Notes: generated by a model from the letters alone, not told the origin. A stretch of DNA of 64,000 bases from an uncultured Candidatus Saccharibacteria bacterium (GCA_964390265.1 CAYMHI010000001.1:8345-72344), one strand, 5' to 3'; positions 2-13,589 are shown, counted from the stretch's first letter. Program-made: numbers and translations.

Positions 2-1054
2 AAAGCTAGCTTCGCAACCGGTAGTACACTTCAGCCTCACAGCTTCTTTTTGGTAAGTACGAATAAGCCCAGCGATTTGACGTTAATTTCTGGAATGTCT
101 CAGACTGGTGGGGTGGTAGAGATTCGTGATGATAAGAACAGTGTTATGGATAGAGTGGGTTATGGTAATGCTTCGCTTTCAAACGGTAAACCAGCGGTAG
201 CAGTCCAGTCCGGAGAAAGTATGTATCGTCAATACGATTCTCCAAATACACAAATGATAAATACTGGTGATAATTTCTCAGATTTTTATATTGCCACCGT
301 TTTAACCCCAGGAGCGGTACCGGCAGTCGAGATAGAAGATACTAGCGAGCCAATTACATACCCTCCGTTAACAATTAATGAACTTTACCCCAACCCCGCG
401 AGCGATCAATCTGAAAGTTCTGATGAATACATTGAGCTTTATAATCCCAATAACTTTGACATCGATCTAAATGGGTGGCTTATAAAAGACGCCTCTGGCA
501 ATACCTTTGTAATAAAAAACAAAACTATTGCTGCCGGTAGTCATGCTGCAATTTATAGTAGTGAAACACACCTTTCACTTAACAACACAGGTGACACCAT
601 ACGATTGTATAGTCCTAACAATCAACTAGAAGACGAAACAGTTGATTATGGCGACGCTAAAGAAGGTTTGAGCTGGGGGTTGGTAGATGGTGCATGGGCC
701 TGGAACAACTCACCCACCCCTGCTGCACCAAATTCATCTGCCTATGTGCAAGTAGTAGCTACCAAACCCGTTGCTACCAAAACTACTAAGATAGCCAATA
801 AAACTACTGCCAAAAAACTAGCCATAGCTAAAAAAGCTAGCACCAAAAAAGCTAAAGCCAGTAAGCTCAGTGCAGCAAAAAAAGCACATGCTAGCACGGC
901 CACGCCAGCAGTTACTCAACAAGAGCTACAATCTAAGTTCGCCAATTTCTGGCCATGGTTGATGATTTTACTCGGAACAGCTACCATAGGTTATGGAATA
1001 TATGAATACAAGCCAGAAATCACTAACCTTTACTACCGATTTAAAAACAAGTGA
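2..1054 (+). CDS. Lamin-tail-domain (LTD) surface protein, 5'-partial. The reading frame is open from the window edge. It has a Lys/Ala-rich tail and a C-terminal TM anchor.
   Basis: The listed ORF begins with TTG at 50, but the frame is open back to nt 2. The LTD signature is ELYPNP..EYIELYNP..DLNGW.I. The C-terminus has a KTTAKKLAIAKKASTKKAKASK repeat followed by a hydrophobic anchor. Confidence 0.6.
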   Translation, partial: KASFATGSTLQPHSFFLVSTNKPSDLTLISGMSQTGGVVEIRDDKNSVMDRVGYGNASLSNGKPAVAVQSGESMYRQYDSPNTQMINTGDNFSDFYIATVLTPGAVPAVEIEDTSEPITYPPLTINELYPNPASDQSESSDEYIELYNPNNFDIDLNGWLIKDASGNTFVIKNKTIAAGSHAAIYSSETHLSLNNTGDTIRLYSPNNQLEDETVDYGDAKEGLSWGLVDGAWAWNNSPTPAAPNSSAYVQVVATKPVATKTTKIANKTTAKKLAIAKKASTKKAKASKLSAAKKAHASTATPAVTQQELQSKFANFWPWLMILLGTATIGYGIYEYKPEITNLYYRFKNK

Positions 1055-1075
1055 GACTATAGCCGCTAAACTAGC

Positions 1076-1472
1076 TATGGCCATAAAATCACCTCAACTT
1101 ATTGAGCTGGTGGGTGATTTGGGTGGTGGTAAAACTACATTTACCAAAGCTTTAGGCAAAGCACTTGGAGTAAAAAAGACTATTACCAGCCCAACTTTTA
1201 ATATCCATAGAGGCTATGACTTTGTTGGTGGTAGGTTGGAGCACTTTGATCTCTACCGGCTAGGTGATGACGAGATAGTACTCAATGAACTTGAAGATTG
1301 CTTAAAAGACAAAGGCTCAATTGTAGTAGTAGAGTGGGCTGCTAATTTTAAAGACATTTTGGCCAAAGATAGACTGATAATAGATTTTAAATATATAAAT
1401 GAAGAAACTAGGGAATTAAAAATTTTAGCAGTAGGTAAAAAAAGTTTAATGTTGTTGGATAAATTAAAATGA
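1076..1472 (+). CDS. tsaE: tRNA threonylcarbamoyladenosine biosynthesis ATPase TsaE (YjeE)
   Basis: Walker A motif GDLGGGKTTF and the conserved TSPTF motif. Start placed at ATG 1076 because the 993 start overlaps the upstream gene. Confidence 0.8.
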
Positions 1473-1861
1473 TACTTGCTATACGAACCGATAAAGCAAC
1501 TGCTGAGCTATCAATTTATGATAGCCAAGAAAAAGAAATAGATAGAGACGTTTGGCAAGCCGACAGAAAACTTGCCGATGAACTTTTGCCTCACATTCAA
1601 AACCTGTTATATAAAAATAACTTTGATCTACCTGATTTGTCAGGAATAATAATTTTTACTGGAGACGGTTCATTCACTGGCTTACGAATTGGTACAACCG
1701 TGGCTAATACCTTGGCATATTCACTGTCTATACCAATTGTGGAGGCCCGGGGCTCTGATTGGCTCAAGGCTGGATTCAAAAATCTGCTCAACTCTAAGCC
1801 CGGCAACTATGTGGTTCCTAAATATTCCAAAAAACCTAATATTACTAAGCCAAAAACTTGA
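1469..1861 (+). CDS. tsaB: TsaB/YeaZ-like protein, short form with the N-terminal half only
   Basis: ATGA start/stop overlap with tsaE. The sequence MILAIRTDKATAELSIY...IIFTGDGSFTGLRIG is typical of the TsaB N-domain. The protein is only 130 aa. Confidence 0.6.
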   Translation: MILAIRTDKATAELSIYDSQEKEIDRDVWQADRKLADELLPHIQNLLYKNNFDLPDLSGIIIFTGDGSFTGLRIGTTVANTLAYSLSIPIVEARGSDWLKAGFKNLLNSKPGNYVVPKYSKKPNITKPKT

Positions 1862-2031
1862 TTCTATTTGGCACAAGTATAATAATAGAATAAGTCAGAA
1901 GTTCCGAAGTTTTGATTACAAAACTCAAAATAAGTTTTTTAGAAATAATATAATAAGTATATAAATACAAACATAAACAACCTCACCAAATCGGTTGTTT
2001 TTGTGTAGTAGCTATAAAAAGGAGTGGTGTT

Positions 2032-3549
2032 ATGCAGATAGGAGTGTTACTTGCTGTTATTGTTGGAGCGGGGGCTTTGGGTTACGTATCTAATGTGGTT
2101 TTGACCAAGCAAAAAAGCGCCGAGGGAAAGGCCAAGGCCGACAAAATACTAGATGATGCCAAAGTTAAAGCGAAAGAAGATTTGTTGAAGGCTAAAGAAG
2201 AGGCACTAAAGATACAAACCGAGGCCAAAGAAGAAGAGAAGCAACGTCGCAATAGACTTGATGAGCAAGATAGGCGCGTAAGTGATAGAGAAAAATTACT
2301 AGATAGTAAACTAGAAACTTTAGAACGTCGCGCCGATGCAATGAAAAATGATGAAAAAGAAATTGAAGCTATTAAACAAGAGTTGCGAGATATACGTGCA
2401 AGACAAGTTGAGAATTTAGAGAAAATCGCTAAATTAAAGAAAAAAGAGGCCACTGAAAAATTAATGGCAATGACCGAAAAAGATATTAAGGCTGACTTGG
2501 TAGAATATATTGAAAAGCTCAAACGAGACGCAACTGAGAATGCCGACGAAGACGCTAAAGAAATTATGGCCGCCGCTATGGAGCGCATGGCTAGTAGTCA
2601 GGCTACAGAGCGTACTATTACTACTGTACCTATTACTAGCGACGAGGTAAAAGGCAGAATAATTGGCAAAGAAGGCCGTAACATTCAAACTTTTGAACGC
2701 CTAACTGGGGTAGATGTACTAATTGACGAAAGCCCTGGCGTAATTGTGCTTTCTGGCTTTGATCCTGTGCGCCGGCAAGTGGCGCGCGTTGCAATGGAAC
2801 AGCTAGTAAAAGACGGTCGTATTCACCCCGGTCGCATAGAAGAGTTGGTAGGTAAAGCTCAAAAAGAAATTGACCAAGACGTAAAAAAAGCTGGTGAAGA
2901 TGCTGCAAGAGAAGCCAAAGTGGTTGGTTTGCCACCAGAGATAAACAAACTTATGGGTCAGCTAAAATTTCGTACCAGTTTTTCTCAGAATGTACTGCAT
3001 CACTCCATAGAGATGGCACACTTGGCCGCTATGATTGCCGAAGAGATTGGAGCAGATGTTAAAATCAGCCGTACCGCCGCCTACCTGCACGATCTCGGCA
3101 AAGCCGTCAGCCACGAGATAGAAGGCAAGCATCACCACATTACCGGCGACATTATGCGCAAGGCTGGTTTTGATGAGGCTACTGTGCATGCGGCCGAGGC
3201 TCATCACGATGATATTGAAGCCACTACTCCAGAGGCTCTAATTGTGCGAGCTGTAGATGCACTAAGCGCTGGTCGGCCAGGTGCACGTGGTGATACTGCC
3301 GAGAATTTTGGCAAACGTATGACCGACTTAGAAAACGTTACCAAGGCTTTTCCTGGTGTAGAAAAAGTCTATGCTATGAGTGCCGGGCGTGAGATACGAG
3401 TATTTGTAAGTCCCGAAAACGTTGATGATCTTAGTGCTATTAAGTTGGCTCGTGATGTTGCCACCAAGATAGAGGCTACGCTAAAATATCCAGGTACCAT
3501 TAAGGTAAATGTAATTCGCGAAACCCGCGCTGTGGAGTTTGCTAAATAG
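2032..3549 (+). CDS. rny: Ribonuclease Y
   Basis: N-terminal TM helix, a long coiled coil, a KH domain (GKEGRNIQ) and an HD domain (HSIEMAHLAAMIAEE...LHDLGK). AGGAG RBS upstream. Confidence 0.9.
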   Translation: MQIGVLLAVIVGAGALGYVSNVVLTKQKSAEGKAKADKILDDAKVKAKEDLLKAKEEALKIQTEAKEEEKQRRNRLDEQDRRVSDREKLLDSKLETLERRADAMKNDEKEIEAIKQELRDIRARQVENLEKIAKLKKKEATEKLMAMTEKDIKADLVEYIEKLKRDATENADEDAKEIMAAAMERMASSQATERTITTVPITSDEVKGRIIGKEGRNIQTFERLTGVDVLIDESPGVIVLSGFDPVRRQVARVAMEQLVKDGRIHPGRIEELVGKAQKEIDQDVKKAGEDAAREAKVVGLPPEINKLMGQLKFRTSFSQNVLHHSIEMAHLAAMIAEEIGADVKISRTAAYLHDLGKAVSHEIEGKHHHITGDIMRKAGFDEATVHAAEAHHDDIEATTPEALIVRAVDALSAGRPGARGDTAENFGKRMTDLENVTKAFPGVEKVYAMSAGREIRVFVSPENVDDLSAIKLARDVATKIEATLKYPGTIKVNVIRETRAVEFAK

Positions 3550-3564
3550 TATGAAGGAACAAAA

Positions 3565-3837
3565 ATGACACATAGAGAATTAATTGAAGAACTAGCCGAT
3601 AGCGCCAATATTACTAAGCGTCAAGCCGAACGTACGCTTAATAAAATGAGTATGATAATTATGAGCGAAGTGAAGCACGGCCAAAAGGTTAATATTAATG
3701 GCTTTGGTACGTTTTACCTCGGCAAGCGAGCTGCTCGAGCCGGCATCAACCCTATGACAGGTGATAAAATTGATATTCCCAAAGTAATGATACCCAAGTT
3801 TAGATCTGGTAGTAGATTTAAAAAGATGGTTCGTTAA
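3565..3837 (+). CDS. hup: HU/IHF-family DNA-binding protein
   Basis: 90-aa protein with FGTF...RAARAGINPMTGDKIDIP, the HU arm motif. Confidence 0.85.
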   Translation: MTHRELIEELADSANITKRQAERTLNKMSMIIMSEVKHGQKVNINGFGTFYLGKRAARAGINPMTGDKIDIPKVMIPKFRSGSRFKKMVR

Positions 3838-3870
3838 ATATAGCAGCAAACTGGTTGTGGTGCGTCAAAA

Positions 3871-5145
3871 TTGAGTATAATAGCAAACATGAATACCTAC
3901 GTAGCCGATGAAAAAATAATTGATCAACTTACCAAGTTGCCCAAAGTAAGACTTACAATATTTCGTGATATTGAGATAAGCCAACAAGGGTTTGTACTAT
4001 TAAAGCTTTCCAAAAGAATACGCTCAAGCATCGTAGAAGATCTTGATAACGACGAGCTTATTGCGCTGCTAAACTATCTAGACCCCGACAAAGCTACCGA
4101 TATTATTCAAGAGCTCAAGCCCCATAGAGCCAAGAAAATCACCTCAGAGCTATCTGATACTGTTCGTGATAAGGTAGAGACTTTGCTGAGTTTTAACCCT
4201 CGTACTGCTGCCGGCCTAATGAATCTTGACTACGTAGAGATTGCGCCAAATATGCATTTTGAAGATGTATCGGCCAATATTATTGAGCACGAAAAACGAA
4301 CCGGCAAGTTCCCTTCAATACTAGTGGTAGACAACGGTAAATTGTTGGGTGAACTACCCGGGCACGAGCTGGCTTTGCATAGCGGCAAAGAAAAGGTAGA
4401 GAACTATATCAAAAGAGTACCGTCGGTGCACTTTGATAATGATGAACACAAGGTTGTGAACTCGTTTATAAAACACCCACACAATAAGGTGGTTGTACTT
4501 GCCGAAGACGAAAGTATTTTGGGCGTAATTCATTCTGACGACTTGCTAAATTTAATAGATAAACGAACAGCCAACGATCTATATGGTTTTGCTGGGGTAA
4601 ATAAAGAAGAGGATGCATTAGATGGGGTTGGTACCAAGGTGCGCAATAGATATCTTTGGCTAATGATAAACCTTGGTACGGCATTTTTAGCCGCCTCGGT
4701 TGTGGGTATGTATGAAGGTACTATCGCCAAGCTTACCTTGCTAGCTGTATATATGCCCATTGTAGCCGGTATGGGTGGTAATGCTGCTACTCAAACCTTG
4801 GCGGTTGCCGTACGTGGGTTGGTACTCAAAGAAATAGACTTGCGTCACGGTCTTAATTTTGCTGCTCGCGAGTTGGGCGCTGGTATTATAAACGGTATTA
4901 TCAACGGCGCCATCGTGGCACTGGTGGCAATAGTTATAAATAAAAACCCCATGCTAGGGTTGGTCTTAGCACTAGCTATGATTGGCAATCTAGTAATAGC
5001 CTCGGTATCTGGCGCAATTGTTCCGCTAATTATGAAAGCATTTGGCAAAGACCCAGCTACATCGGCAACAGTATTTATTACCACCTGCACCGATGTGGGC
5101 GGATTTTTTATATTCTTGAGTCTAGCGCAACTAATGCTAGTCTAG
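3871..5145 (+). CDS. mgtE: Magnesium transporter MgtE
   Basis: MgtE N-domain, a CBS pair and a C-terminal five-TM domain with the PIVAGMGGNAATQTLAV motif. The true start may be ATG at 3889. Confidence 0.85.
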   Translation: MSIIANMNTYVADEKIIDQLTKLPKVRLTIFRDIEISQQGFVLLKLSKRIRSSIVEDLDNDELIALLNYLDPDKATDIIQELKPHRAKKITSELSDTVRDKVETLLSFNPRTAAGLMNLDYVEIAPNMHFEDVSANIIEHEKRTGKFPSILVVDNGKLLGELPGHELALHSGKEKVENYIKRVPSVHFDNDEHKVVNSFIKHPHNKVVVLAEDESILGVIHSDDLLNLIDKRTANDLYGFAGVNKEEDALDGVGTKVRNRYLWLMINLGTAFLAASVVGMYEGTIAKLTLLAVYMPIVAGMGGNAATQTLAVAVRGLVLKEIDLRHGLNFAARELGAGIINGIINGAIVALVAIVINKNPMLGLVLALAMIGNLVIASVSGAIVPLIMKAFGKDPATSATVFITTCTDVGGFFIFLSLAQLMLV

Positions 5146-5251
5146 TTGGTTTGGTAGGTTGCTAGTAAAAATAATGATAGACAACAGTTAAATGCGCTTA
5201 TGATATAATCATTAGCATATATAACAACTACTAATAGGTACCAAAATAATT

Positions 5252-6574
5252 ATGAACGAAACAAGTGAAGAAAAAGTAGAAAAAGTAGCAGCAACCCCAG
5301 AGCTGAACGCTGCCGAAAAAGAAGTTGTAAAGTTTCTAGATGCCAGAATAGACGCAGAGCCAGAGAAAATGCGCAAATTAATGACCGAGAATTTTCAGGC
5401 TAACTATGATTTTTCAGTTTTAGACCCTCAAAAGCCTCAAAAAACTCAGCCGGTTTCATTTAGAATTATTAGAACTAGTAAAGAGGCCGGTAGTTTTTCG
5501 GTCACTGCTGAGATATTAAATGAAAATCAAAAGAGTCATAAACAAAAAACCATTAGCAAGATATATGATCTTACGAAAGACGCGGACTCCAAACAGCTCT
5601 TAATTAACTCCGAGAAAAACCTCAAATCAGATGTACCGTTTTATAAAAAACCTGTTTTCTGGATAGCCACAGTTATGGGATTGGCTGCTATTGCCGGGCT
5701 AGTATTTTGGGCTATAACCAGTCAAAAAACTACTCAAAATCAACAGTCTATTAAGGCCAACTGGCACCAAGTAGTAGATGGTGCAAAAGGGGTTGATGAT
5801 GCCGCGGCCAACGCTACTAAAGACCAGGCTGGTTATGACAATTACACCAAAAAGCTTAGCGACTACAAAAGCCTGGTTGGCGATGTTAAGTTTAGGGCCG
5901 ATCAACTCAAGCCTACTAGCGCCGACAAAGAAGACATTGCCAATTACAAAAATGCGCTTGTTAACTTAAATGATTATATATCGGAGGCGTCTAATCAAAG
6001 TAAGAATGTTGCTAGCCTTACTACTGCCGATTCATCTAAGCTAGATGATCTAGCTAATACGGCTGAGGCCGCTACCAATAAATTTCAAGATGGCGCTAAA
6101 TATCTAAGCGACAAAATGCCCACAGATATTTTTAACATTGGTGATGTACTGGCAAAGCAAAAAGATAAGCTCGATCAAGATAAACAGAAGGTGCAAGAAG
6201 CCCAAAACGCCGCCGCCGATGTGGTCGCCAAAGATGCTGCCAACAAAACCACAGTTACGAACAATATAACAACTTTTGAGCAAGGCTACATAGCCGGCAA
6301 TGAATCTGTAATGCGCCCAGTTATGACAGCTGGATTCCAAGGAGAATATAACTTCAACCAATTAACTCCCGAGCAACGTCAATATCAATACCCTAGCAGC
6401 TTTAGAATAATTAATGTTACTAAACAAGCCGATGGAACATACAAAGCTCAAGTAAATGTATTGTATAAATACACTGACAACCCCAACCAATATACCCAGG
6501 GTTATGAATACAGCGTAATTGGTCAAAATAATAAGTGGCTAATTAATAACGAAAAAACTGTTAGCGAATTTTAA
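5252..6574 (+). CDS. Hypothetical membrane-anchored protein
   Basis: Long ORF with one central TM helix and coiled-coil and low-complexity regions. No recognisable motif. Confidence 0.5.
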   Translation: MNETSEEKVEKVAATPELNAAEKEVVKFLDARIDAEPEKMRKLMTENFQANYDFSVLDPQKPQKTQPVSFRIIRTSKEAGSFSVTAEILNENQKSHKQKTISKIYDLTKDADSKQLLINSEKNLKSDVPFYKKPVFWIATVMGLAAIAGLVFWAITSQKTTQNQQSIKANWHQVVDGAKGVDDAAANATKDQAGYDNYTKKLSDYKSLVGDVKFRADQLKPTSADKEDIANYKNALVNLNDYISEASNQSKNVASLTTADSSKLDDLANTAEAATNKFQDGAKYLSDKMPTDIFNIGDVLAKQKDKLDQDKQKVQEAQNAAADVVAKDAANKTTVTNNITTFEQGYIAGNESVMRPVMTAGFQGEYNFNQLTPEQRQYQYPSSFRIINVTKQADGTYKAQVNVLYKYTDNPNQYTQGYEYSVIGQNNKWLINNEKTVSEF

Positions 6575-6593
6575 TATAAACAAGGAGATAATA

Positions 6594-6851
6594 ATGAGAC
6601 CACAGAATGAGCTCGTACCTGAAGACACTAGCGATGAAAAGTCGGTAGCCTACAGTAGGCTAGAAGAGGCCCTTGGCACTAGCTTGAAAGCATTTCAAAA
6701 AGTACGCGATGAAGTTATTGCATCGGGAGCCATGACTTCTGAGGAGGTAGATGATGCAAGGGCAAGTATAGTTGGCCATACTAAAGAAGAACGCCAAGCA
6801 GAGATTAGGGAGTGGATGAAAGCTGATTACGACGAGCAAATAGATCAATAG
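6594..6851 (+). CDS. Small acidic hypothetical protein
   Basis: ORF with AGGAG RBS (caaggagataataATG). Confidence 0.45.
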   Translation: MRPQNELVPEDTSDEKSVAYSRLEEALGTSLKAFQKVRDEVIASGAMTSEEVDDARASIVGHTKEERQAEIREWMKADYDEQIDQ

Positions 6852-6911
6852 AATAGTATAAAAAACTGTTAGCGAGTTTTCAACAAAACCTTAGCCGAAT
6901 TAGTAACTATA

Positions 6912-7151
6912 TTAAACCCCAGTAAAGTAGCTAGCTGGACTAAAAGCTATAAATGAAAGTAAATATAGTACTAAAAATAAAGAAATAACCATCGCAACCA
7001 CAGTGATAGTTATAGCCCTAGTTGAACTTTGTCTATCTTTAAGTAGCAACTTACTACAAATCAAAAATACTATTATAGGCACAAAAATTATCAAAACAGA
7101 TGTGACTATTAAATTGGAGATAATGGCATTATGCCAGCCTACATTATCCAT
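6912..7151 (-). CDS. Possible small two-TM membrane protein
   Basis: ORF with two hydrophobic helices. No clear RBS. Confidence 0.25.
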   Translation of the reverse strand: MDNVGWHNAIISNLIVTSVLIIFVPIIVFLICSKLLLKDRQSSTRAITITVVAMVISLFLVLYLLSFIAFSPASYFTGV

Positions 7152-7255
7152 TTATTAATAATATAACGGCTTAATACATTTTGCTACAGGTGAATAATTG
7201 AGACTAATTGCGTTAGTACTTAAACAAAAAGCCCACGCATGGGCTACTTGTTTTA

Positions 7256-7333
7256 TGGGGTGAGTGATGGGACTTGAACCCACGGCCTTCTGGACCACAA
7301 CCAGACGCTCTAACCAACTGAGCTACACCCACC
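7256..7333 (-). tRNA. tRNA-His (GTG), with encoded G-1 and CCA
   Basis: Cloverleaf read on the minus strand. Anticodon loop TTGTGGT. An extra 5' G is typical of tRNA-His. Confidence 0.85.
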
Positions 7334-7503
7334 TCGTCGAAAGTGTGCTAACACTATCGACAATAGAATATCTATTCGCCTACAGTTAACACACAACTTT
7401 CTCCTCTCGAATCACGAAACAACCAAGTGTTTATTTCATGATTCGGTTTAGAAAAAGATCAGATCTATACTTTTAGTTGGCGTTGCTATGCCTCAGCGTT
7501 ATA

Positions 7504-7580
7504 TGGTGCCCCCGGCAGGATTCGAACCTACGACCCTCGGTTTAGAAAACCGATGCTCTATCCAGCTGAGCTACGGGGGC
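7504..7580 (-). tRNA. tRNA-Arg (TCT)
   Basis: Minus strand sequence GCCCCCGTAGCTCAGCTGGATAGAGCATCGGTTTTCTAAACCGA...CGGGGGCACCA. Anticodon UCU. Confidence 0.85.
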
Positions 7581-7780
7581 GCGTCTTCGTCGGACAACCG
7601 TAGTGACTTACATACCTATTTTCGAAGATACAATTTTACTTATTCATGATTGTAAAATAACTGTCCTGAACTTATTGTAACAATAAAGTAGTGTGCAGGG
7701 TATAAATTTAACAATTGTGAATGGGCTGTCTTAACCGAATAAAATGTGCACATTTTATTCGAGGAGGAAAAGTATTGTAG

Positions 7781-7836
7781 TTAACAAACAAATAAGCAGA
7801 ACCCCAAAGTTGAAACTCTGCTTATTTGTTTGTATT
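7781..7836. repeat. Perfect hairpin with a 16-bp stem
   Basis: aacaaacaaataagcag / ctgcttatttgtttgt with an 18-nt loop, followed by a T-rich tract on the plus strand. Confidence 0.5.
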
Positions 7837-7890
7837 TATACAATACTTTGACGATGGGGCGGTGTTCTACGCTAAAGCTACGATACAACT

Positions 7891-7950
7891 TCCAGATTAA
7901 ACTTCACTCATGCATTCTTAATTTGAATAATTAAGCGTAGCGTGAGTGAA
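7891..7950. terminator. Strong hairpin with a stem of about 16 bp, immediately 3' of tRNA-Gly on the minus strand
   Basis: ttaaacttcactcatgc ... gcgtgagtgaagtttaa inverted repeat. Confidence 0.5.
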
Positions 7951-7956
7951 GTTTAA

Positions 7957-8031
7957 TGGAGCGGGTAGCGGGAATCAAACCCGCATCACCTGCTTGGAAG
8001 GCAGGAGTAATAATCATTATACGATACCCGC
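7957..8031 (-). tRNA. tRNA-Gly (TCC)
   Basis: Minus strand sequence GCGGGTATCG...CCTGCCTTCCAAGCAGG...CCCGCTCCA. Anticodon UCC. Confidence 0.85.
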
Positions 8032-8278
8032 ATATCTATAAAGTGCAATCGATTTGAAAGAACATAGCTTATTATACAAGATTTGTATATGCAGCGCTAT
8101 CTTGCAGACAATGTATATTACTCCAAATGTTAATATATTACAAGACAATAAAGTAACTAGCGCAACTCTAAATTAGAATAAAAGTAAATATTATATTCAA
8201 AACCGTTTATACTTGCTTTGGTAGTTGTTTGGGTGTTTAATAGTAGTTAAGAAATATATTTTAAAAAGGAGAATTAAA

Positions 8279-8674
8279 ATGATAAACGGAAAATTAAAAA
8301 AGCTAGCCGTAGTAGGTGGAGCAGCAGTATCAGCCTTGGTACCTACTCTTGCTCGTGCAGCTGACTACAGCTCAGACTACACCACTACAACAACCACTAC
8401 AGATGGCGCTGCCGCTGCAGGTATCGTAGGTGTGTCGCTACTATTTATGTTCTTGTGGTTTGCATTTGCAATATTTGCACTTGTGTACTGGATACTAATG
8501 CTAATTGACGTAATTAAACGTACCAATTGGGAAAACGAAAGCGACAAAACTCTATGGTTGCTAGTTGTAATATTGCTAGGCATACTAGGTGCATTGGTTT
8601 ACCGATTTGTAGTTGTTTCAAAACTAGGCAAAGCTAGCGCACAAAAAACTTCTACTCCAGCTGCTAAAAAATAA
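8279..8674 (+). CDS. Small secreted/membrane protein with a PLD-nuclease N-terminal-like (PLDc_N) membrane domain
   Basis: AAAGGAGA RBS. Signal peptide, a Thr run, then the WILMLIDVIKRTNWE..DKTLWLLVVILLGILGALVY motif. Confidence 0.55.
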   Translation: MINGKLKKLAVVGGAAVSALVPTLARAADYSSDYTTTTTTTDGAAAAGIVGVSLLFMFLWFAFAIFALVYWILMLIDVIKRTNWENESDKTLWLLVVILLGILGALVYRFVVVSKLGKASAQKTSTPAAKK

Positions 8675-8705
8675 ATAAATAAGTAAGTAAGTAAGTAACT
8701 TGTTT

Positions 8706-8740
8706 AAGAAGAGCCCTACACACTAAGGGCTCTTTTTTTA
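8706..8740 (+). terminator. Rho-independent terminator
   Basis: gagccctacacactaagggctc followed by a T8 run. Confidence 0.8.
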
Positions 8741-8787
8741 TAGCTATAATTATGCTAGTATAAACAGGTTAAATTTAGTAAAATAAT

Positions 8788-8864
8788 GCGCCCTTAGCTC
8801 AGCTGGATAGAGCGTCTGGCTTCGGACCAGAAGGCCGGGGGTTCGAATCCCTCAGGGCGCACCA
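8788..8864 (+). tRNA. tRNA-Arg (TCG)
   Basis: GCGCCCTTAGCTCAGCTGGATAGAGCGTCTGGCTTCGGACCAGA...GGGCGCACCA. Anticodon UCG. Confidence 0.85.
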
Positions 8865-8917
8865 TATAATTGAGTCTTGGCTAAAAGCCAATGACACAAT
8901 TATAAAGTATGATTTGA

Positions 8918-8998
8918 TGAGAGACCCAGGGTTCGGTGCAGTAAAGCGCGCAGTGTCAAAACAAATTAATTTGGTTTTGACCAAGCACTTTACCTTAA
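8918..8998 (+). ncRNA. Conserved element of about 80 nt, copy A. Candidate structured RNA or miniature inserted element.
   Basis: It is paralogous to 10735-10815. It shares the gatga.aga...ggttcggtg...gcgcag...CAAAAC-hairpin-GTTTTG...agcac pattern. Confidence 0.35.
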
Positions 8999-9012
8999 GA
9001 GGCGTAGCCGCT

Positions 9013-9030
9013 ATCCCTCAGGGCGCACCA
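9013..9030 (+). repeat. 18-nt direct repeat of the tRNA-Arg(TCG) 3' end (atccctcagggcgcacca). It looks like an att-like target duplication.
   Basis: Exact copy of positions 8847-8864, located 148 bp downstream. Confidence 0.7.
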
Positions 9031-9212
9031 CGTTATATTATGTTAGACGATATATTCTAGATGTTAGAATAAAATTAAAACTAAATTAATTAATCTTCTA
9101 GCAAATTGAATAAGCTTGCTTGTTCAATTGAAGAGGAGAATGACTTGCGAACGGTGAAAGTAATTATTTACAATAATTTCTGCAACAATCAGTAATCGTT
9201 CGACGACGACGA

Positions 9213-9288
9213 GGGTCTGTAGCTCAATTGGCAGAGCAGTTGCCTCTTAAGCAATTGGTTGTGGGTTCGAGTCCCACCGGACCCACCA
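9213..9288 (+). tRNA. tRNA-Lys (CTT)
   Basis: GGGTCTGTAGCTCAATTGGCAGAGCAGTTGCCTCTTAAGCAAT...GGACCCACCA. Anticodon CUU. Confidence 0.8.
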
Positions 9289-9374
9289 AGAAAGTATCTC
9301 AGCGAATGCTGGGATTTTTTCTTGGTAAAACATTAATTTAAAAAAAGCCTACCAAATAGGTAGGCAGAGATGAA

Positions 9375-10421
9375 CTATAAGTCGCCGGTACGACTAAAAA
9401 AGTGTTTCCATCTTGAGTCTGGAATAGGAGTAACGCTTGGGGAGTGCAAGAGGTTATGGCCCTCCAGAAGATACTCGATTATTGCCATGAGTATTGGCAC
9501 GCTATAGCCAGACTGTGCAAAGTGCTTAGCTCGCCTGTCATTGTCTATCTCTGGCATTAGATCATTACTTCGAGGTAATGGGTGCATAAGTATTGCATTG
9601 GGGCTCAACATTCGCATCACACTCTCATCGATGAAATAAGCAGACCCACCAGCTCCCACCCAGTAGAATACATCAGTGTCTAGAACCATCGAGTCGAGAT
9701 TGGTCGTTTCTTTGAATTCAATATCACTCAAATACAAATTCTCTCGCAACTCATCATCTATACGTGCACTTTCAAGTGATACAAATATGAAGCTGATATT
9801 TTCGAAGAGACACAATGCTAGAGCAAGGTTTCGCGCAGTTATATTGCGACGAAGATCGCCACCAATCACCACGCGCAAATTCTGTAGTCTACCCACTTCT
9901 CGATAGATAGTATAGAGATCTACTAGCGTTTGCAATGGGTCATCTGCTATATTGATCATTGCGGCACTACTATGGTGAGCCGAGAGCTCTAACTCTTTAC
10001 TTGGCGGCTGATTGACCGCAATAATGTGAGGCTTGTACTCACTCAGTGACTTTAGTAAATCAGATAAACTTTCATCTCCAGCGCTATCCACATCTATAAT
10101 ACTTATTCCCATTCTTTTGGCAGCGGTAAAGAGAGATGTTTGTGATCGAGGAGACGGGCAGTCTAGCAACGTGTAGAGTAAGTAGTCTCTATAAAGACTG
10201 GCACTGACTTGAGGGTTTGGTACGCGAAGTCCATAACCCAACTGCTGTACGTATATATCTACAGCGGCAAAAAGATCTAACAAGAATTGTTTGCTCAGCT
10301 GAGAGGTGCTTAGTATGTGACGTAGTTTGGTTGATTTCTTTTGCAAAGGAACAAACCTTTCAATATGTTTGGTCGAAAGAAGTTCGTTTGATATAGTAGG
10401 CCAACAGGTAGCAAAAGTCAA
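9375..10421 (-). CDS. Aspartate/ornithine carbamoyltransferase-like protein with a degenerate N-terminal carbamoyl-phosphate motif
   Basis: The C-terminal MHPLPRSNDLMPEIDND...F.QSG motif is a near-perfect match to the ATCase HPLPRVDEI...F.Q..G motif. The N-terminal STRTR motif is replaced by SPRSQT, and HPTQ is not recognisable. Confidence 0.6.
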   Translation of the reverse strand: MTFATCWPTISNELLSTKHIERFVPLQKKSTKLRHILSTSQLSKQFLLDLFAAVDIYVQQLGYGLRVPNPQVSASLYRDYLLYTLLDCPSPRSQTSLFTAAKRMGISIIDVDSAGDESLSDLLKSLSEYKPHIIAVNQPPSKELELSAHHSSAAMINIADDPLQTLVDLYTIYREVGRLQNLRVVIGGDLRRNITARNLALALCLFENISFIFVSLESARIDDELRENLYLSDIEFKETTNLDSMVLDTDVFYWVGAGGSAYFIDESVMRMLSPNAILMHPLPRSNDLMPEIDNDRRAKHFAQSGYSVPILMAIIEYLLEGHNLLHSPSVTPIPDSRWKHFFSRTGDL

Positions 10422-10616
10422 TGTGCAGGTTGAAAAATAACCAGTTTATTGGTATGGTTAGTAGCGTGATATAAGATTATTCTTATTTCTTTTCCCATCT
10501 ACAGTTCGTGAAACAATAGAATAGTTGTTTAGCGAACTGAGAGGAGAAATAATGCGAAAGTTATAGAATTAAATGTAATAATATTTAATTTGCCAATTGA
10601 AGCATTATTTGGACGA

Positions 10617-10693
10617 CGGGGTGTGGCGCAGTTGGCTAGCGCGCTTGGTTTGGGACCAAGAGGTCGAAGGTTCGAGTCCTTTCACCCCGACCA
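10617..10693 (+). tRNA. tRNA-Pro (TGG)
   Basis: CGGGGTGTGGCGCAGTTGGCTAGCGCGCTTGGTTTGGGACCAAG...CACCCCGACCA. Anticodon UGG. Confidence 0.85.
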
Positions 10694-10735
10694 AACTAAA
10701 ACACCCAACTTTTGTTGGGTGTTTTAGTTTGTATT
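10694..10735 (+). terminator. Perfect 17-bp hairpin 3' of tRNA-Pro
   Basis: aaactaaaacacccaac tttt gttgggtgttttagttt. Confidence 0.6.
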
Positions 10736-10815
10736 TGATGAAAGACGAGAAACCCGAGGTTCGGTGAACGAGGAGCGCAGACCAAAACCAAACCTGTTTA
10801 GGTTTTGAGCGAGCA
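10735..10815 (+). ncRNA. Conserved element of about 80 nt, copy B (paralog of 8918-8998)
   Basis: Alignable with copy A and contains the same CAAAACC...GGTTTTG hairpin. Confidence 0.35.
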
Positions 10816-10895
10816 CCACAGGCAGAAGGCGCCAGCCGTTGTCCTGGCGCTTTAGTAGACTTATGCTACAATTATTAGCATAAGTAATTTTACAA

Positions 10896-13589
10896 ATGGC
10901 AAACAAAAAAGACATTTTAATTAACTCACTACTTACTTTAGGTATACTTGTTGGCTTATTGGCGATTTATGCTGGTTTTAAGATGCACCCAGCTCAGCCA
11001 GCTCATGCCGCAACAACATACACAGTTACCAACGGTAATAATGCTGGTGCTGGTTCGTTGCGCCAAGCGATCACCGATGCCAATGCTAATCCTGGCGCTG
11101 ATATTATTGTTTTTAATGGAGCCCTTGTTATCCAGCCCACTAGCTCATTACCATCAATTACCGACCCGGTAGAAATAAATGGCTACACCGGCTCGCCCGG
11201 CGGTGCCACAGCCAACTCTGCAGCCAGCCCCAACCCATTCAATGGCACACTCACCGTTGAGCTCGATGGTCAGTTGGCGGCTGGTAGCGTACTTGGTTTA
11301 GGTTTTGAATCAGGCTCAGAGGGTTCATCGGTACGTGGGCTGGTGATTTATAATTTTTCTTTTAATGCTATTCAAGTAGCTCCTGGTTTTACTGGTAGCG
11401 GCCTAACCATAGCCGGTAACTACATTGGCACCAATGCAGCCGGTACTGTCGGCCAGGGCACTACGCTTAGCTCTGGCATTGGCCTGTTTGGTACCGGCGC
11501 ATCAAACATTACAGTCGGTGGCACAAACCCAGCAGATAGGAACATAATCTCTGGCAATGCTGGGGGGATTGGAGGCGGGGCAAACAGCAATGCTACCATA
11601 CAGGGCAATTATATTGGCTTAGCTGCCGATGGGACTACTGCCTTAGCAAATGCGGGTGGTGGCATTGTTTTTTATGCCGATACTACCAATGCAACCATTG
11701 GGGGCGCCACTACCTCGGCAGCTAATGTAATATCTGGCAATACATCGGGCTATGGCATATCTATTACGACTGCCGATGTCAACCACAATACTATAGCCGG
11801 TAACTTCATTGGCACTGATTACACAGGCGCTGTTGCCCGTGGTAATGCCAATGGCGGTATATTTATTGGCAGTGGTTCTGCATCTAATACTGTTGGTGGT
11901 ACTACGACCGGCGCTCGAAACCTTATCTCTGGCAATTCTAGTGCGGGTATATTTATTAATAGCGGAGGTACAAGCAACACCGTAGAAGGCAACTACATTG
12001 GTACCGATATAACTGGTGCTACAGCCCTAGCAAATGGCACAGGGGTAAGTATTTTAGGTGGGTCTAGTGGCAACACTATTGGCGGGGCAGATACCACTAC
12101 ACGCAATATTATTTCCGGTAACGGTGGTATGGGTTTGAGTATAGACACAAGTAATAGCAACACAGTAGCAAGTAACTACATTGGTGTTGATGTAACTGGT
12201 ACGGCTGACTTAGGTAATGGCGGTATTGGTGTAGCTATAAATAACTCAGCAAGTAGTAACACTATTGGCGGTACCACTGCTAGTGAACGCAACGTTATTT
12301 CTGGAAACGCAGATAATGGAGTGTACATATCTGGCACTGGCACAAATAATACAATCCTAGGTAATTATCTTGGTACCAATGCGAGTGGCTCAGCCGCAAT
12401 ACCCAATGATCAAAATGGCTTGTTTTATTTGGCAACAGGTACTGGCAATGTTCTGGGTGGACTTGCTGAAGGGTCTAGAAATATTCTTTCGGGTAATTCC
12501 AATTTTGGGGTGATATGTAGTAGTGGTGCCAACTTGAGTATTCAAGGAAATTATGTGGGGTTGAGTGCTGATGGCGCTACAACAATACCCAATGTTGGTG
12601 CTGGTAACAGTGCTAACATTGCTTTGACAGGATGTTCAAACATGATTATCGGTGGTTCTGCTACTGGTGCACGCAATGTTATATCTGGCAGCCTAGGGGC
12701 TGGGATATTAATGATTGCTGGCGGGAATAATACGGTGCAAGGTAACTACATTGGTACCAAAACTAGCGGTGAAGTCCAAAGTGGGTTTGGTAATAGTACC
12801 GCTGGTATTATTATAGCTTCTGCTTCTACGAATAACTTAATAGGCGGTGTAAATAGTGGTGAAGGCAACATAATAGCCGGTAATGGCGCAGGTGTTGCAG
12901 TTGGTGATATAGGAGGTATATTCTTAGCACAAAATAACTCTATCTTAGGCAATAGTATTCATGACAATAGCAGTGGTCCCCTGAGTAGCTTAGGAATAGA
13001 TTTACTGGGTAACACAAATGATTTCGTTACGTGGTCTTCCATTGGCGTTACCCCCAACGATGCTGGTGACCCCGACGTTACCTCTAATGTACTCATGAAC
13101 TTCCCAGTCATTCAATCAGTTACTTCTACCAATGGACAAGCCACAATAACGTATGACTTAGATATCAACGATGCCGAGCCTGGCGCTACTGGCTACCGCG
13201 TAGAGTTCTTTGCCAACGACTCTGCTGACCCCAGTGGTCATGGCCAAGGCCAAACCTACTTGGGAAGCGACACCGTTGCTGGTGATGTGAATGGTAGAAG
13301 CGCCACTCTTACGCTCCCAGCTGGCGTGGATGGTTCTAAATATGTTTCTGCCACCACTACCATGACCGATGCTAGTGATGATGGTTTTGGCCACACCTCT
13401 GAGTTTGCTGCTGACGTACAAGCTACTCTAGTGCCGGTATCTCCAACACCAACCCCAAGTCCAGCTGCCAATGTGTTGGCCACTACGGGCCTTAATCAAA
13501 ATAGAAGTAAATTAATTCTCGCAGCTATCGCACTGGTATTACTGGGTGGTACTGGGCTATACGTTGCTCGCCGTCAAAAACGAACTTAG
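10896..13589 (+). CDS. Large surface protein with right-handed parallel beta-helix repeats and a C-terminal LAxTG sortase sorting signal
   Basis: N-terminal signal/TM. Dozens of Gly/Asn/Thr-rich repeats with N.ISGN motifs. PT-rich linker (VSPTPTPSP). LATTG, a hydrophobic stretch and an RRQKRT tail. Confidence 0.8.
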   Translation: MANKKDILINSLLTLGILVGLLAIYAGFKMHPAQPAHAATTYTVTNGNNAGAGSLRQAITDANANPGADIIVFNGALVIQPTSSLPSITDPVEINGYTGSPGGATANSAASPNPFNGTLTVELDGQLAAGSVLGLGFESGSEGSSVRGLVIYNFSFNAIQVAPGFTGSGLTIAGNYIGTNAAGTVGQGTTLSSGIGLFGTGASNITVGGTNPADRNIISGNAGGIGGGANSNATIQGNYIGLAADGTTALANAGGGIVFYADTTNATIGGATTSAANVISGNTSGYGISITTADVNHNTIAGNFIGTDYTGAVARGNANGGIFIGSGSASNTVGGTTTGARNLISGNSSAGIFINSGGTSNTVEGNYIGTDITGATALANGTGVSILGGSSGNTIGGADTTTRNIISGNGGMGLSIDTSNSNTVASNYIGVDVTGTADLGNGGIGVAINNSASSNTIGGTTASERNVISGNADNGVYISGTGTNNTILGNYLGTNASGSAAIPNDQNGLFYLATGTGNVLGGLAEGSRNILSGNSNFGVICSSGANLSIQGNYVGLSADGATTIPNVGAGNSANIALTGCSNMIIGGSATGARNVISGSLGAGILMIAGGNNTVQGNYIGTKTSGEVQSGFGNSTAGIIIASASTNNLIGGVNSGEGNIIAGNGAGVAVGDIGGIFLAQNNSILGNSIHDNSSGPLSSLGIDLLGNTNDFVTWSSIGVTPNDAGDPDVTSNVLMNFPVIQSVTSTNGQATITYDLDINDAEPGATGYRVEFFANDSADPSGHGQGQTYLGSDTVAGDVNGRSATLTLPAGVDGSKYVSATTTMTDASDDGFGHTSEFAADVQATLVPVSPTPTPSPAANVLATTGLNQNRSKLILAAIALVLLGGTGLYVARRQKRT

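Follow-up and report, generated by a model that had tools for sequence, protein, structure and literature searches.

What has placed a second copy of the last 18 nucleotides (nt) of a transfer RNA (tRNA) gene downstream of the first, and why does a related element stand behind another tRNA gene of the same cluster? The question is raised by a 64,000-nt stretch of a Candidatus Saccharibacteria chromosome (hereafter the window; 41% G+C) that carries a cluster of six tRNA genes and whose histidyl-tRNA synthetase has its nearest named homolog in the same group. One element, el1, lies behind tRNA-Arg(TCG) and another, el2, behind tRNA-Pro; a third, el3, lies behind tRNA-Lys in the related genome L021. 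The answer that we favor, with a probability of roughly 0.55, is that el1 and el2 are copies of a small (about 150 nt), protein-less, non-autonomous insertion-element family of Patescibacteria that is specific for the 3′ ends of tRNA genes and duplicates its target. It is this tRNA-end-specific family of miniature elements, absent from Rfam, that is notable here, and not a tRNA island with a relic of an aspartate carbamoyltransferase (ATCase).

ARAGORN and the Rfam tRNA model place tRNA-Arg(TCG) at 8788–8864 on the plus strand (71.6 bits), the strand on which all features of el1 and el2 are read. Its last 18 nt, ATCCCTCAGGGCGCACCA (8847–8864), are positions 59–76 of the tRNA, comprising the last two bases of the T-loop, the 3′ strands of the T-stem and of the acceptor stem, the discriminator base, and CCA. 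This 18-mer occurs only there and at 9013–9030, the two copies being 148 nt apart, and 0.01 matches are expected by chance in dinucleotide shuffles when up to two mismatches are allowed. The intervening el1 begins directly after CCA with a hairpin, X (8865–8904), that reads as an outer stem, TATAATTG/CAATTATA, and an inner stem, TTGGC/GCCAA. In the linker that follows (8905–8934), alignment with other copies reveals a decayed antisense relic of the tRNA 3′ part (..GATGAGAGA..) and a short hairpin, P1 (GAGACC cag GGTTC). The conserved core (8935–9012) starts with GGTG, scores 52.3 bits with a covariance model of the family, R1, and holds an extended stem (8941–8993) with a covarying apical hairpin, P2 (GTCAAAAC, 8955–8962, with GTTTTGAC, 8974–8981), followed by AGAGGCGTAGCCGCT. 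After the core come the second copy of tRNA-Arg positions 59–76 (9013–9030) and the native downstream sequence.

The state of this site without the element is visible in L001, a 48.6-kb contig that is collinear with the window at 88–92% nucleotide identity. There, tRNA-Arg(TCG) runs straight into the sequence that follows the second 18-mer of the window; the flank aligns with the window from 9013 onward, a single 18-mer is present, and 148 nt plus one 18-mer are absent. Judged from this alignment, the empty site speaks in favor of an insertion or of a clean loss through the repeats. Hairpin X is missing from the empty site and has an equivalent at the same place in every family member; it takes the place of a terminator for tRNA-Arg(TCG). 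The original prediction for this locus had described the recurrence of the tRNA 3′ end 148 bp downstream, had taken the repeat as the mark of an event at that end, and had proposed that an empty site be sought in a related genome. The repeat search and the shuffles agree with the first of these points, and L001 provides the empty site and with it the event, be it insertion or deletion.

The second element follows the same plan behind tRNA-Pro(TGG) (10617–10693, plus strand; called by ARAGORN and Rfam). Its hairpin X (10694–10729), AACTAAAACACCCAAC tttt GTTGGGTGTTTTAGTT, resembles an intrinsic terminator, with 18 bp (17 bp had been given for this perfect hairpin at first) and a T tail, and is kept in L001 and L021. 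The next segment (10730–10762), as read from the sequence and from comparison with the family, contains P1 (GAAACC cga GGTTC) and antisense remains of the tRNA-Pro 3′ part (TGTATTTGATGAAAGACGAGAAACC, to be set beside TGGTCGGGGTGAAAGGACTCGAACC). The core (10763–10840; 66.2 bits with R1) includes P2 (CCAAAACC, 10782–10789, with GGTTTTG, 10801–10807) and ends with GCCGTT at 10840. At the position of the repeat (10841–10850), GTCCT is left of tRNA-Pro positions 59–76 and the rest is replaced by GGCGC, which pairs with the core at 10829–10835 to form a new hairpin that is followed by TTT; the copy in the related genome L028 is in the same state (GTCCT only). The L001 ortholog ends in the full repeat, gTCCTTTCACCCCGACCA (tRNA-Pro positions 59–76), followed by a terminator, and the L021 repeat is gTCCTTTCACCCCGACCA with two mismatches. 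By this comparison, el2 once ended in an 18-nt tRNA-Pro repeat that was lost in the window and remains intact in L001 and L021.

That el1 and el2 are true paralogs, as first proposed for the paired stretches of about 80 nt, agrees with their alignment, with profile matches, and with the covarying hairpin. They are 70% identical over 74 nt (blastn), with blocks of 23 and 19 nt (83–84% identical) at the same 1828-nt spacing, and a profile built from three copies matches further genomes with E = 2e-20. The two are separate insertions, each behind its own tRNA. No open reading frame (ORF) is conserved between them; the 47-amino acid ORF of el1 was rejected as coding, as el2 has a stop after nine codons in the same register and there is no similarity at the protein level.

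Sites occupied in one member of the lineage are empty in another. The tRNA-Pro copy is present in the window, L001, L021 (an NCBI Saccharibacteria genome whose histidyl-tRNA synthetase [HisRS] is 76% identical to that of the window), and L028, and absent from L019, in which the original terminator follows tRNA-Pro once a separate island is set aside. The copy behind tRNA-Lys, el3, is found in L021 only and ends in gTCCCACCGGACCCAtCA; tRNA-Lys(CTT) of the window (9213–9288, plus strand) is element-free. A copy behind tRNA-Arg(TCT) is found in L028 only, and its 18-nt repeat, ATCCTGCCGGGGGTACCA, is perfect. Corresponding copies are missing from the window, L021, and L019 at the sites occupied in their relatives. 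An intact tRNA gene with a duplicated 3′ fragment, the criterion for a genomic island, is found at tRNA-Arg(TCG), tRNA-Pro, tRNA-Lys, and tRNA-Arg(TCT), and at all four sites the repeat begins at tRNA position 59, with position 58 mismatched (A in the tRNA, T in the element). The cores of the window and L001 orthologs are 89% identical, and those of paralogs 43–74%.

Once seven copies were known, a pattern (GGTTCGGYG N50-75 AGGC N3-4 GCCGYTRTCC) was designed and metagenome contigs were scanned with it. It returned 67 stretches, 35 of which match the seven-copy profile (E down to 5e-26); all 35 lie on low-GC, Patescibacteria-like contigs, and the remainder are high-GC coding false positives. 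(A first pattern, ACCCNNGGTTCGGNG..GCGCAG, was dropped, having matched only high-GC coding false positives in viral contigs; with ..CAAAAC added it was too strict and gave zero matches in genome or metagenome contigs. A protein search of species-representative genomes yielded only two relevant loci.) The distinct new copies number 31. Wherever an upstream tRNA was detected, it is on the same strand and ends 57–93 nt before GGTTCGG, and the bases that follow GCCGCT correspond to its last 18 nt. The targets are tRNA-Pro, Val(TAC), Val(GAC), Ser(CGA), Arg(TCG), Arg(TCT), Asn, Gln, Met, and Asp, which with tRNA-Lys makes eleven isoacceptor types in all. Seven of the metagenome repeats are perfect and the others partly decayed; in most of these copies, as at the four Saccharibacteria sites, the repeat spans position 59 to CCA with the T-loop directly upstream, and position 59 (A or G) matches the local tRNA in 19 of 22 cases. 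The cores cluster by host lineage, not by tRNA, the Saccharibacteria-type core being found at seven tRNAs (Pro, two types of Val, Ser, two types of Arg, and Lys), each time with the local 18 nt. The elements form a widespread Patescibacteria family of non-coding elements of about 150 nt directly behind tRNA genes. In the window, only tRNA reaches the Rfam threshold, and nothing plausible appears over el1 and el2 up to E = 10; a well-kept copy in L059 likewise matches no Rfam family. Literature searches found no description of such elements, which does not prove that none exists.

Some family members behind tRNA-Asn have genes for neighbors. On the minus strands of L082 (about 2080–9620) and L031 (about 230–4430), an array of gene segments with family members between them lies downstream of tRNA-Asn, a layout reminiscent of the cassette arrays of integrons, here at a tRNA gene. 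The segments encode NUDIX, SAICAR synthase, and unknown proteins; Pfam searches of the inserted segments returned NUDIX, SAICAR synthase, and LexA-like domains and no recombinase. L082 exceeds L031 by 3.2 kb (two segments), bounded by TGACCTGTAYGCTGAGCCAA, a diverged copy of the tRNA-Asn 3′ end. In L080 (1600–2360) and L083 (530–1360, both in element orientation), small single-gene insertions lie between tRNA-Asn and a family member, encoding an 83-amino acid ORF and an ORF of about 190 amino acids, the latter being the downstream portion of a longer frame that continues through the tRNA. The end of each insertion is marked by a short stretch repeating the tRNA terminus (CCGGAGCCA, GAGCCA), and in L080 a degenerate second family member lies directly behind the tRNA.

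The order of parts is common to the family: tRNA, hairpin X, antisense tRNA 3′ part, P1 (GAACC..GGTTC), a core of about 75 nt ending in GCCGCT, and the repeat. Hairpin X is long, nearly perfect, and abuts CCA in all copies. The antisense stretch is more or less decayed and starts with TGG in well-kept copies; it is clear in L059 (37 aligned positions, reaching into the anticodon-stem region), L079, L033, and L032. The Saccharibacteria type has a short P1; in the other (“long”) type, P1 is long and encloses an inner hairpin. The bases before TTCGG behave like the 5′ strand of a T-stem, pairing with repeat positions 63–65 at 1.97 of 3 positions vs 1.32 of 3 in permutations (P = 2e-4; 23 distinct combinations), and the T-stem-like helix that they form with repeat positions 61–65 is 78.5% paired, with three covarying pairs. 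In the long type, the bases before TTCGG equal those of the local tRNA, variable-loop bases included. With this T-stem-like pairing and these tRNA-matching bases, the 3′ half of the element resembles a tRNA T-arm and acceptor 3′ strand, and the core of about 75 nt looks as though it sits in the T-loop, between positions 57 and 59.

Covariation was counted with R1, which finds 47 copies among the examined loci. Double changes are seen in 15 of 15 pairs of P2, in an alignment that is fitted to the model and contains many related copies. The number of double-change cells is 149, compared with 56.8 ± 7.6 in shuffles (0 of 500 reach the observed value) and 30–47 in slid controls. The helix that closes the core (GGYG with CGCU) is 98.8% paired and nearly invariant. 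The covariance analysis suggested at the outset for the elements of about 80 nt has in this way yielded a conserved, covarying hairpin. The signal is clear only once 46 copies are aligned to the model; the seven-copy consensus fold is weak (−8.3 kcal/mol), and the folds of single sequences are no better than those of shuffles (z = −1.07 for el1 and 0.12 for el2).

How would such an element come to lie behind so many tRNA genes? In the proposed insertion, it would be moved in trans by an enzyme that is not encoded next to it and that would recognize what all tRNA genes share, namely, the T-arm and the distance to the 3′ end. Joining would duplicate the 18 bp of the target that run from T-loop position 59 through CCA, so that a copy flanks the element on either side. 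The tRNA would stay intact, hairpin X directly after CCA would keep it a terminator, and the 3′ strand of P1 may be seen as a likeness of the T-stem 5′ strand and the start of the T-loop. The downstream repeat would be free to decay, as behind tRNA-Pro of the window, and the 18-nt repeats would also permit clean loss. That the repeat would be made from the target at insertion, rather than brought along, is favored because one core subtype sits at seven tRNAs with matching local repeats. An element-borne tRNA end would leave a chimeric tRNA at each new target and, on the far side, a repeat that belongs to the former tRNA; neither is seen. Duplication of the target would account for all copies. 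The presumed enzyme and the direction of each putative gain or loss belong to the same conditional scheme.

A precedent for a long target duplication set by the tRNA T-arm is the casposase of Aciduliprofundum boonei, for which the T-loop region is the recognition segment and the duplication at the tRNA 3′ end is fixed and long (PMC5137440). The casposon and the present elements are alike in the long, fixed-length duplication (15 bp in A. boonei, 18 nt here) at a tRNA 3′ end, tRNA-Pro in the case of A. boonei, and in the T-loop region just upstream as recognition segment (PMC5137440). They differ in that casposons are large, carry cas1 and polB, have inverted repeats at their termini, and duplicate a segment of which only 5 bp fall within the tRNA, whereas here the ends are not inverted, the duplication lies wholly inside the tRNA, and neither Cas1 nor family B polymerase genes are found in the window or in the neighborhoods of copies. 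With miniature inverted-repeat transposable elements, the family shares its small size, lack of coding capacity, repetition, direct repeat of the target, polymorphism between relatives, and, on the favored reading, dependence on an enzyme acting in trans. Unlike them, it has no terminal inverted repeats, a repeat of 18 nt as opposed to 2–10 bp, and a single position, relative to the tRNA gene, in a single orientation.

Several observations weigh against insertion with target duplication. In members of the long subtype, the similarity of the partial copies, antisense and sense, to the local tRNA extends well past 18 nt, which a simple staggered cut does not explain; it points either to an attachment site that folds into a likeness of the target or to a copying step templated by the tRNA or its gene. 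Paralogs within a genome are only 57–74% identical, with no recent hop documented and no excised form or fresh insertion seen. With paralogs this old, any difference in presence or absence could also stem from loss through the 18-nt repeats. The invariance of GGTTCGG and GCCGYTRTCC in the metagenome copies is a consequence of how the search pattern was built. The folded form may be RNA or single-stranded DNA, of either strand: the 57 G-U and 43 A-C wobble cells show no strand bias, and the strand bias in folding energy is weak (23 of 37, p = 0.035). Terminal inverted repeats are not found by inspection, as the ends TATAATTG.. and AACTAAAAC.. are not complementary to ..AGCCGCT; transposons that duplicate their target do have such repeats. 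The domain scan detected no recombinase, transposase, Cas1, or reverse transcriptase among the 51 ORFs of the window, in line with the earlier statement that no integrase is present, which holds for the 148 nt as well. Within 5 kb of the 35 copies, where ORFs of at least 100 amino acids were clustered, no such enzyme family recurs; only lineage-specific ordinary genes do.

Islands and phages classically insert at tRNA genes, and those known are large and bring their own integrase. The elements might be scars left by tyrosine- or serine-integrase elements: recombination of an element attachment site (attP) with attB inside the tRNA 3′ end would have brought in its own positions 59–76, and later near-total deletion would have left the attP arms (hairpin X; antisense part and core) between attL and attR as an integrase-less, cis-mobilizable remnant. 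We regard this as unlikely. A displaced tRNA 3′ fragment at the far end is the textbook signature of an island (Islander, PMC4383910). Prophages, Islander-type islands with tyrosine integrases, and cis-mobilizable elements share with the present family the tRNA 3′ target, the intact tRNA, and a far-end fragment of about 18 nt; they also form tandem arrays at one tRNA, with some copies lacking a recombinase. The 148 nt are close to the size of an attP, and the tRNA-Asn arrays of L082 and L031, with family members between segments, are laid out as in tandem accretion.

Large-serine-recombinase islands moreover occupy tRNA-Pro in two relatives. Exactly at its 3′ terminus, L001 and L019 carry two different islands (L001, 5297–9659, recombinase gene 8053–9717; L019, 2417–6270, recombinase gene 2359–4215) with recombinases of 554 and 618 amino acids; the window has none there. 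Their junctions have 8-nt and 6-nt repeats of the tRNA terminus (CCCGACCA, CGACCA), and they lie between the tRNA and el2 or, in L019, occur without the element. The islands were rejected as the source of the element's own recombinase on the grounds that the junctions are different, the core is absent from them, and the L019 island is without an element; a likeness of their right ends to the end of the element (AGCC..TGT) is too short to count. They are separate insertions, which mark the tRNA terminus as a hot spot and do not explain the element.

The same short junctions, set apart from the element, count against a scar of an integrase. Independent deletions would not yield one plan of about 150 nt at eleven tRNA types, and an attP would have to bring the correct tRNA end, yet a single core subtype is found at seven tRNAs with a matching repeat at each, which an element-borne att core does not explain. 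An integrase is found near 0 of the 35 copies. In contrast to tRNA islands and cis-mobilizable elements, the family is gene-free, keeps the same covarying core throughout, and carries the tRNA 3′ part in antisense, along with a mimic of the T-arm.

A more speculative proposal, for which we see a somewhat smaller chance, makes the family a tRNA-end recombination module of Patescibacteria. Its folded form would mimic the T-arm/acceptor duplex, or a tRNA, and so programme its own insertion; it would form both the boundary and the attachment site of integron-like cassette arrays at tRNA genes, as in L082 and L031, and would be moved by a host enzyme or by a tRNA-templated, reverse-transcription-like step that copies exactly positions 59–76. 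Integron attC sites and the folded sites used by CTX phage and Xer are likewise imperfect palindromes in which structure is better conserved than sequence. The inverted and direct target copies of the element could fold into a mimic of the target duplex, as in folded attachment sites, and the L082 and L031 segments lie, as in an integron, beside a fixed site (tRNA-Asn) with family members between them. Unlike integron and Xer systems, the copies have no IntI or Xer-type recombinase linked to them, and copies free of cassettes are the rule.

The covarying hairpin also raises the prospect that the element is a structured RNA of use to the host, an account that we consider quite unlikely and that would be compatible with mobility. 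An RNA of about 130 nt, produced by read-through from the tRNA or by its own transcription, would present a 3′ domain that imitates the T-arm of a tRNA, its T-loop enlarged, and continues into the acceptor 3′ strand and CCA; such a tRNA mimic could be, for example, a decoy or regulator of tRNA 3′-end enzymes, with spread as a secondary matter. G(CUUG)C is a stable RNA tetraloop, and the apical loops of P2 are repeatedly G(CUUG)C, in four variants. The core is conserved, the covariation of its hairpin is strong, the T-stem-like pairing tracks the local tRNA, and in the window and L028 the lost tRNA-Pro repeat is replaced by a hairpin and T-run at the element end, as if at a transcript terminus. 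Against this, the promoter scan upstream of the elements found nothing beyond chance, and a terminator hairpin separates tRNA from element. The wobble pairs show no strand bias, and the seven-copy fold is weak, as given above. The element is also dispensable, each site being empty in some close relatives, and its antisense part decays.

The exact extent of the repeat recalls reverse transcription. When a tRNA serves as primer, as at the retroviral primer-binding site, the part of it that reverse transcriptases copy is exactly positions 59–76, up to A58, and Neurospora mitochondrial retroplasmids make complementary DNA (cDNA) with tRNA-derived ends and use a recombination route. In a retro-element-like origin, the antisense TGG copy after hairpin X would be a primer-binding site, and cDNA with tRNA-derived ends would enter the tRNA gene by recombination. 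The repeat does run from position 59 to the mature CCA end at the four Saccharibacteria sites and in most metagenome copies, a TGG-starting antisense copy follows the hairpin in the well-kept L059, L079, and L032, and a purine run (GGAAAAGG / GGAGAAGG) lies shortly before the repeat. As in primer-binding sites of retroviruses and long terminal repeat (LTR) elements, the same 18 nt of a tRNA are present in sense and, after the hairpin, in antisense. We nevertheless hold this origin to be improbable, because the antisense copies pass position 58 to about 40–44, so that there is no stop at A58, and because the antisense part is not renewed at a new tRNA in Saccharibacteria, el1 keeping an el2-like relic. 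All tRNA genes here encode CCA. Reverse transcriptase is not seen near copies or among the window ORFs, and, unlike retroviral and LTR elements, the family has no LTRs, has antisense copies that extend beyond 18 nt, and resides in a bacterial chromosome. Group II introns are reported absent from Patescibacteria (PMC13011429), which also counts against this origin.

Very improbable, finally, is a guide RNA (omega-RNA- or CRISPR RNA-like) for homing or retention of an IS200/IS605-like or Tn7-like element, with the core as scaffold, the 18 nt after GCCGCT as guide to the tRNA gene, and TTCGA (T-loop 54–58) as adjacent motif: the layout has the scaffold first and then 18 nt that always match the neighboring target, and the match in the intact tRNA is preceded by an invariant TTCGA, but TnpB, IscB, Cas12, and TnpA are absent near any copy and from the window, the 18 nt join a conserved T-stem-like pairing that is unexpected for a free guide, IS200/IS605 insertion gives no duplication and would split the tRNA, and a nuclease guided to an essential tRNA gene would be self-targeting.

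The segment between el1 and el2 had been taken for a single tRNA-associated unit that carries an ATCase-like gene, and this part of the original prediction did not hold. As described there, tRNA-Lys and a minus-strand ORF of at most 348 amino acids (9375–10421) lie between the elements. The gene probably starts at TTG 10346, by comparison with relatives, and would encode 323 amino acids (9375–10346). Both Pfam domains match above their cut-offs (PF02729, 3.7e-13; PF00185, 3.8e-10), which bears out the assignment to the ATCase/ornithine carbamoyltransferase homologs, and among solved structures the closest are those of ATCases (2rgw, 1.9e-34). In the window, L001, L019, L021, and L028 alike, the gene is flanked by tRNA-Lys and tRNA-Pro and runs on the opposite strand, whether or not elements are present.

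The residues of an active ATCase we take to be STRTR, R105/H106, H134/Q137, R167, and R229/Q231 (Escherichia coli numbering). Among 14 relatives of the protein, one, on L001, is 90% identical, and the L019 and L021 orthologs (41% identical) keep STRTR, RH, HPTQ, KYGRT, TRxQ, and HPLP. Like the PyrB catalytic chain, the window protein keeps both domains, the HPLP motif, and the overall layout. Unlike PyrB, it has, as does the L001 protein in the ortholog alignment, SPRSQ for STRTR (the decay noted at first, relative to relatives and solved ATCases alike), N-Q for R-H, D-P-L-Q for H-P-T-Q, R-R-N-I-T for K-Y-G-R-T, and V-G-A-G for T-R-x-Q, together with two deletions, at the 80s and 240s loops. 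Alignment with the Methanocaldococcus jannaschii ATCase gives the same losses, with only Q of H134/Q137 kept, I for R167, and G/G for R229/Q231. The ratio of nonsynonymous to synonymous substitution rates (dN/dS) between window and L001 is 0.095, compared with 0.106 for HisRS; as the value is like that of HisRS, the gene is a maintained resident and not a pseudogene. Of the two fates offered earlier, inactivated or neo-functionalized, the loss of catalytic residues stands in both the ortholog and the PDB alignments, whereas a decaying pseudogene does not agree with this dN/dS. On synteny and substitution pattern, the gene is a conserved chromosomal gene, not element cargo, whose enzymatic role has changed or been lost while purifying selection continues. 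A 31% identical homolog with its catalytic motifs kept is found in L002 (6122–7081) in a phage-like setting that also includes a DNA methyltransferase, a T4-type RNA ligase, and a SNF2 helicase that contains an intein and a LAGLIDADG domain.

Other features of the neighborhood were seen as well. Downstream of el2, L028 (1–80) is nearly identical to the window (10841–10920), although its ATCase is of the canonical type (95% to L021), which suggests recombination between lineages around the tRNA-Pro site. A gene for a predicted surface protein of 897 amino acids (window 10896–13589), with internal repeats of a period of about 189–195 nt (11406–12000) and a weak NosD/β-helix match, adjoins DUF5652 and sortase genes and is absent from L021 and L019; its upstream region in L028 is the version of the window. 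About 60–100 nt upstream of tRNA-His, tRNA-Lys, and tRNA-Pro (window 7399–7450, minus strand; 9094–9150; 10500–10549) is a shared motif, a sequence-variable hairpin followed by GA(G/A)AGGAGAA, which the other tRNAs of the window are without. Is it a leader or a processing signal?

The ATCase-like gene illustrates cleanly how an enzyme fold can be retained under selection after the loss of catalysis. The elements are tiny and protein-less and carry a structured core to many tRNAs, and such passengers are unexpected in the minimal genomes of Patescibacteria. Their partial tRNA copies can mislead the annotation of tRNAs and islands, and the covariance model can map them. If it is true that the 18-nt repeat is made at insertion, an unrecognized enzyme must read tRNA genes with a fixed ruler. 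The elements supply extra tRNA ends at which further islands and gene segments accumulate, a process that may rank among the main ways in which these reduced genomes gain genes.

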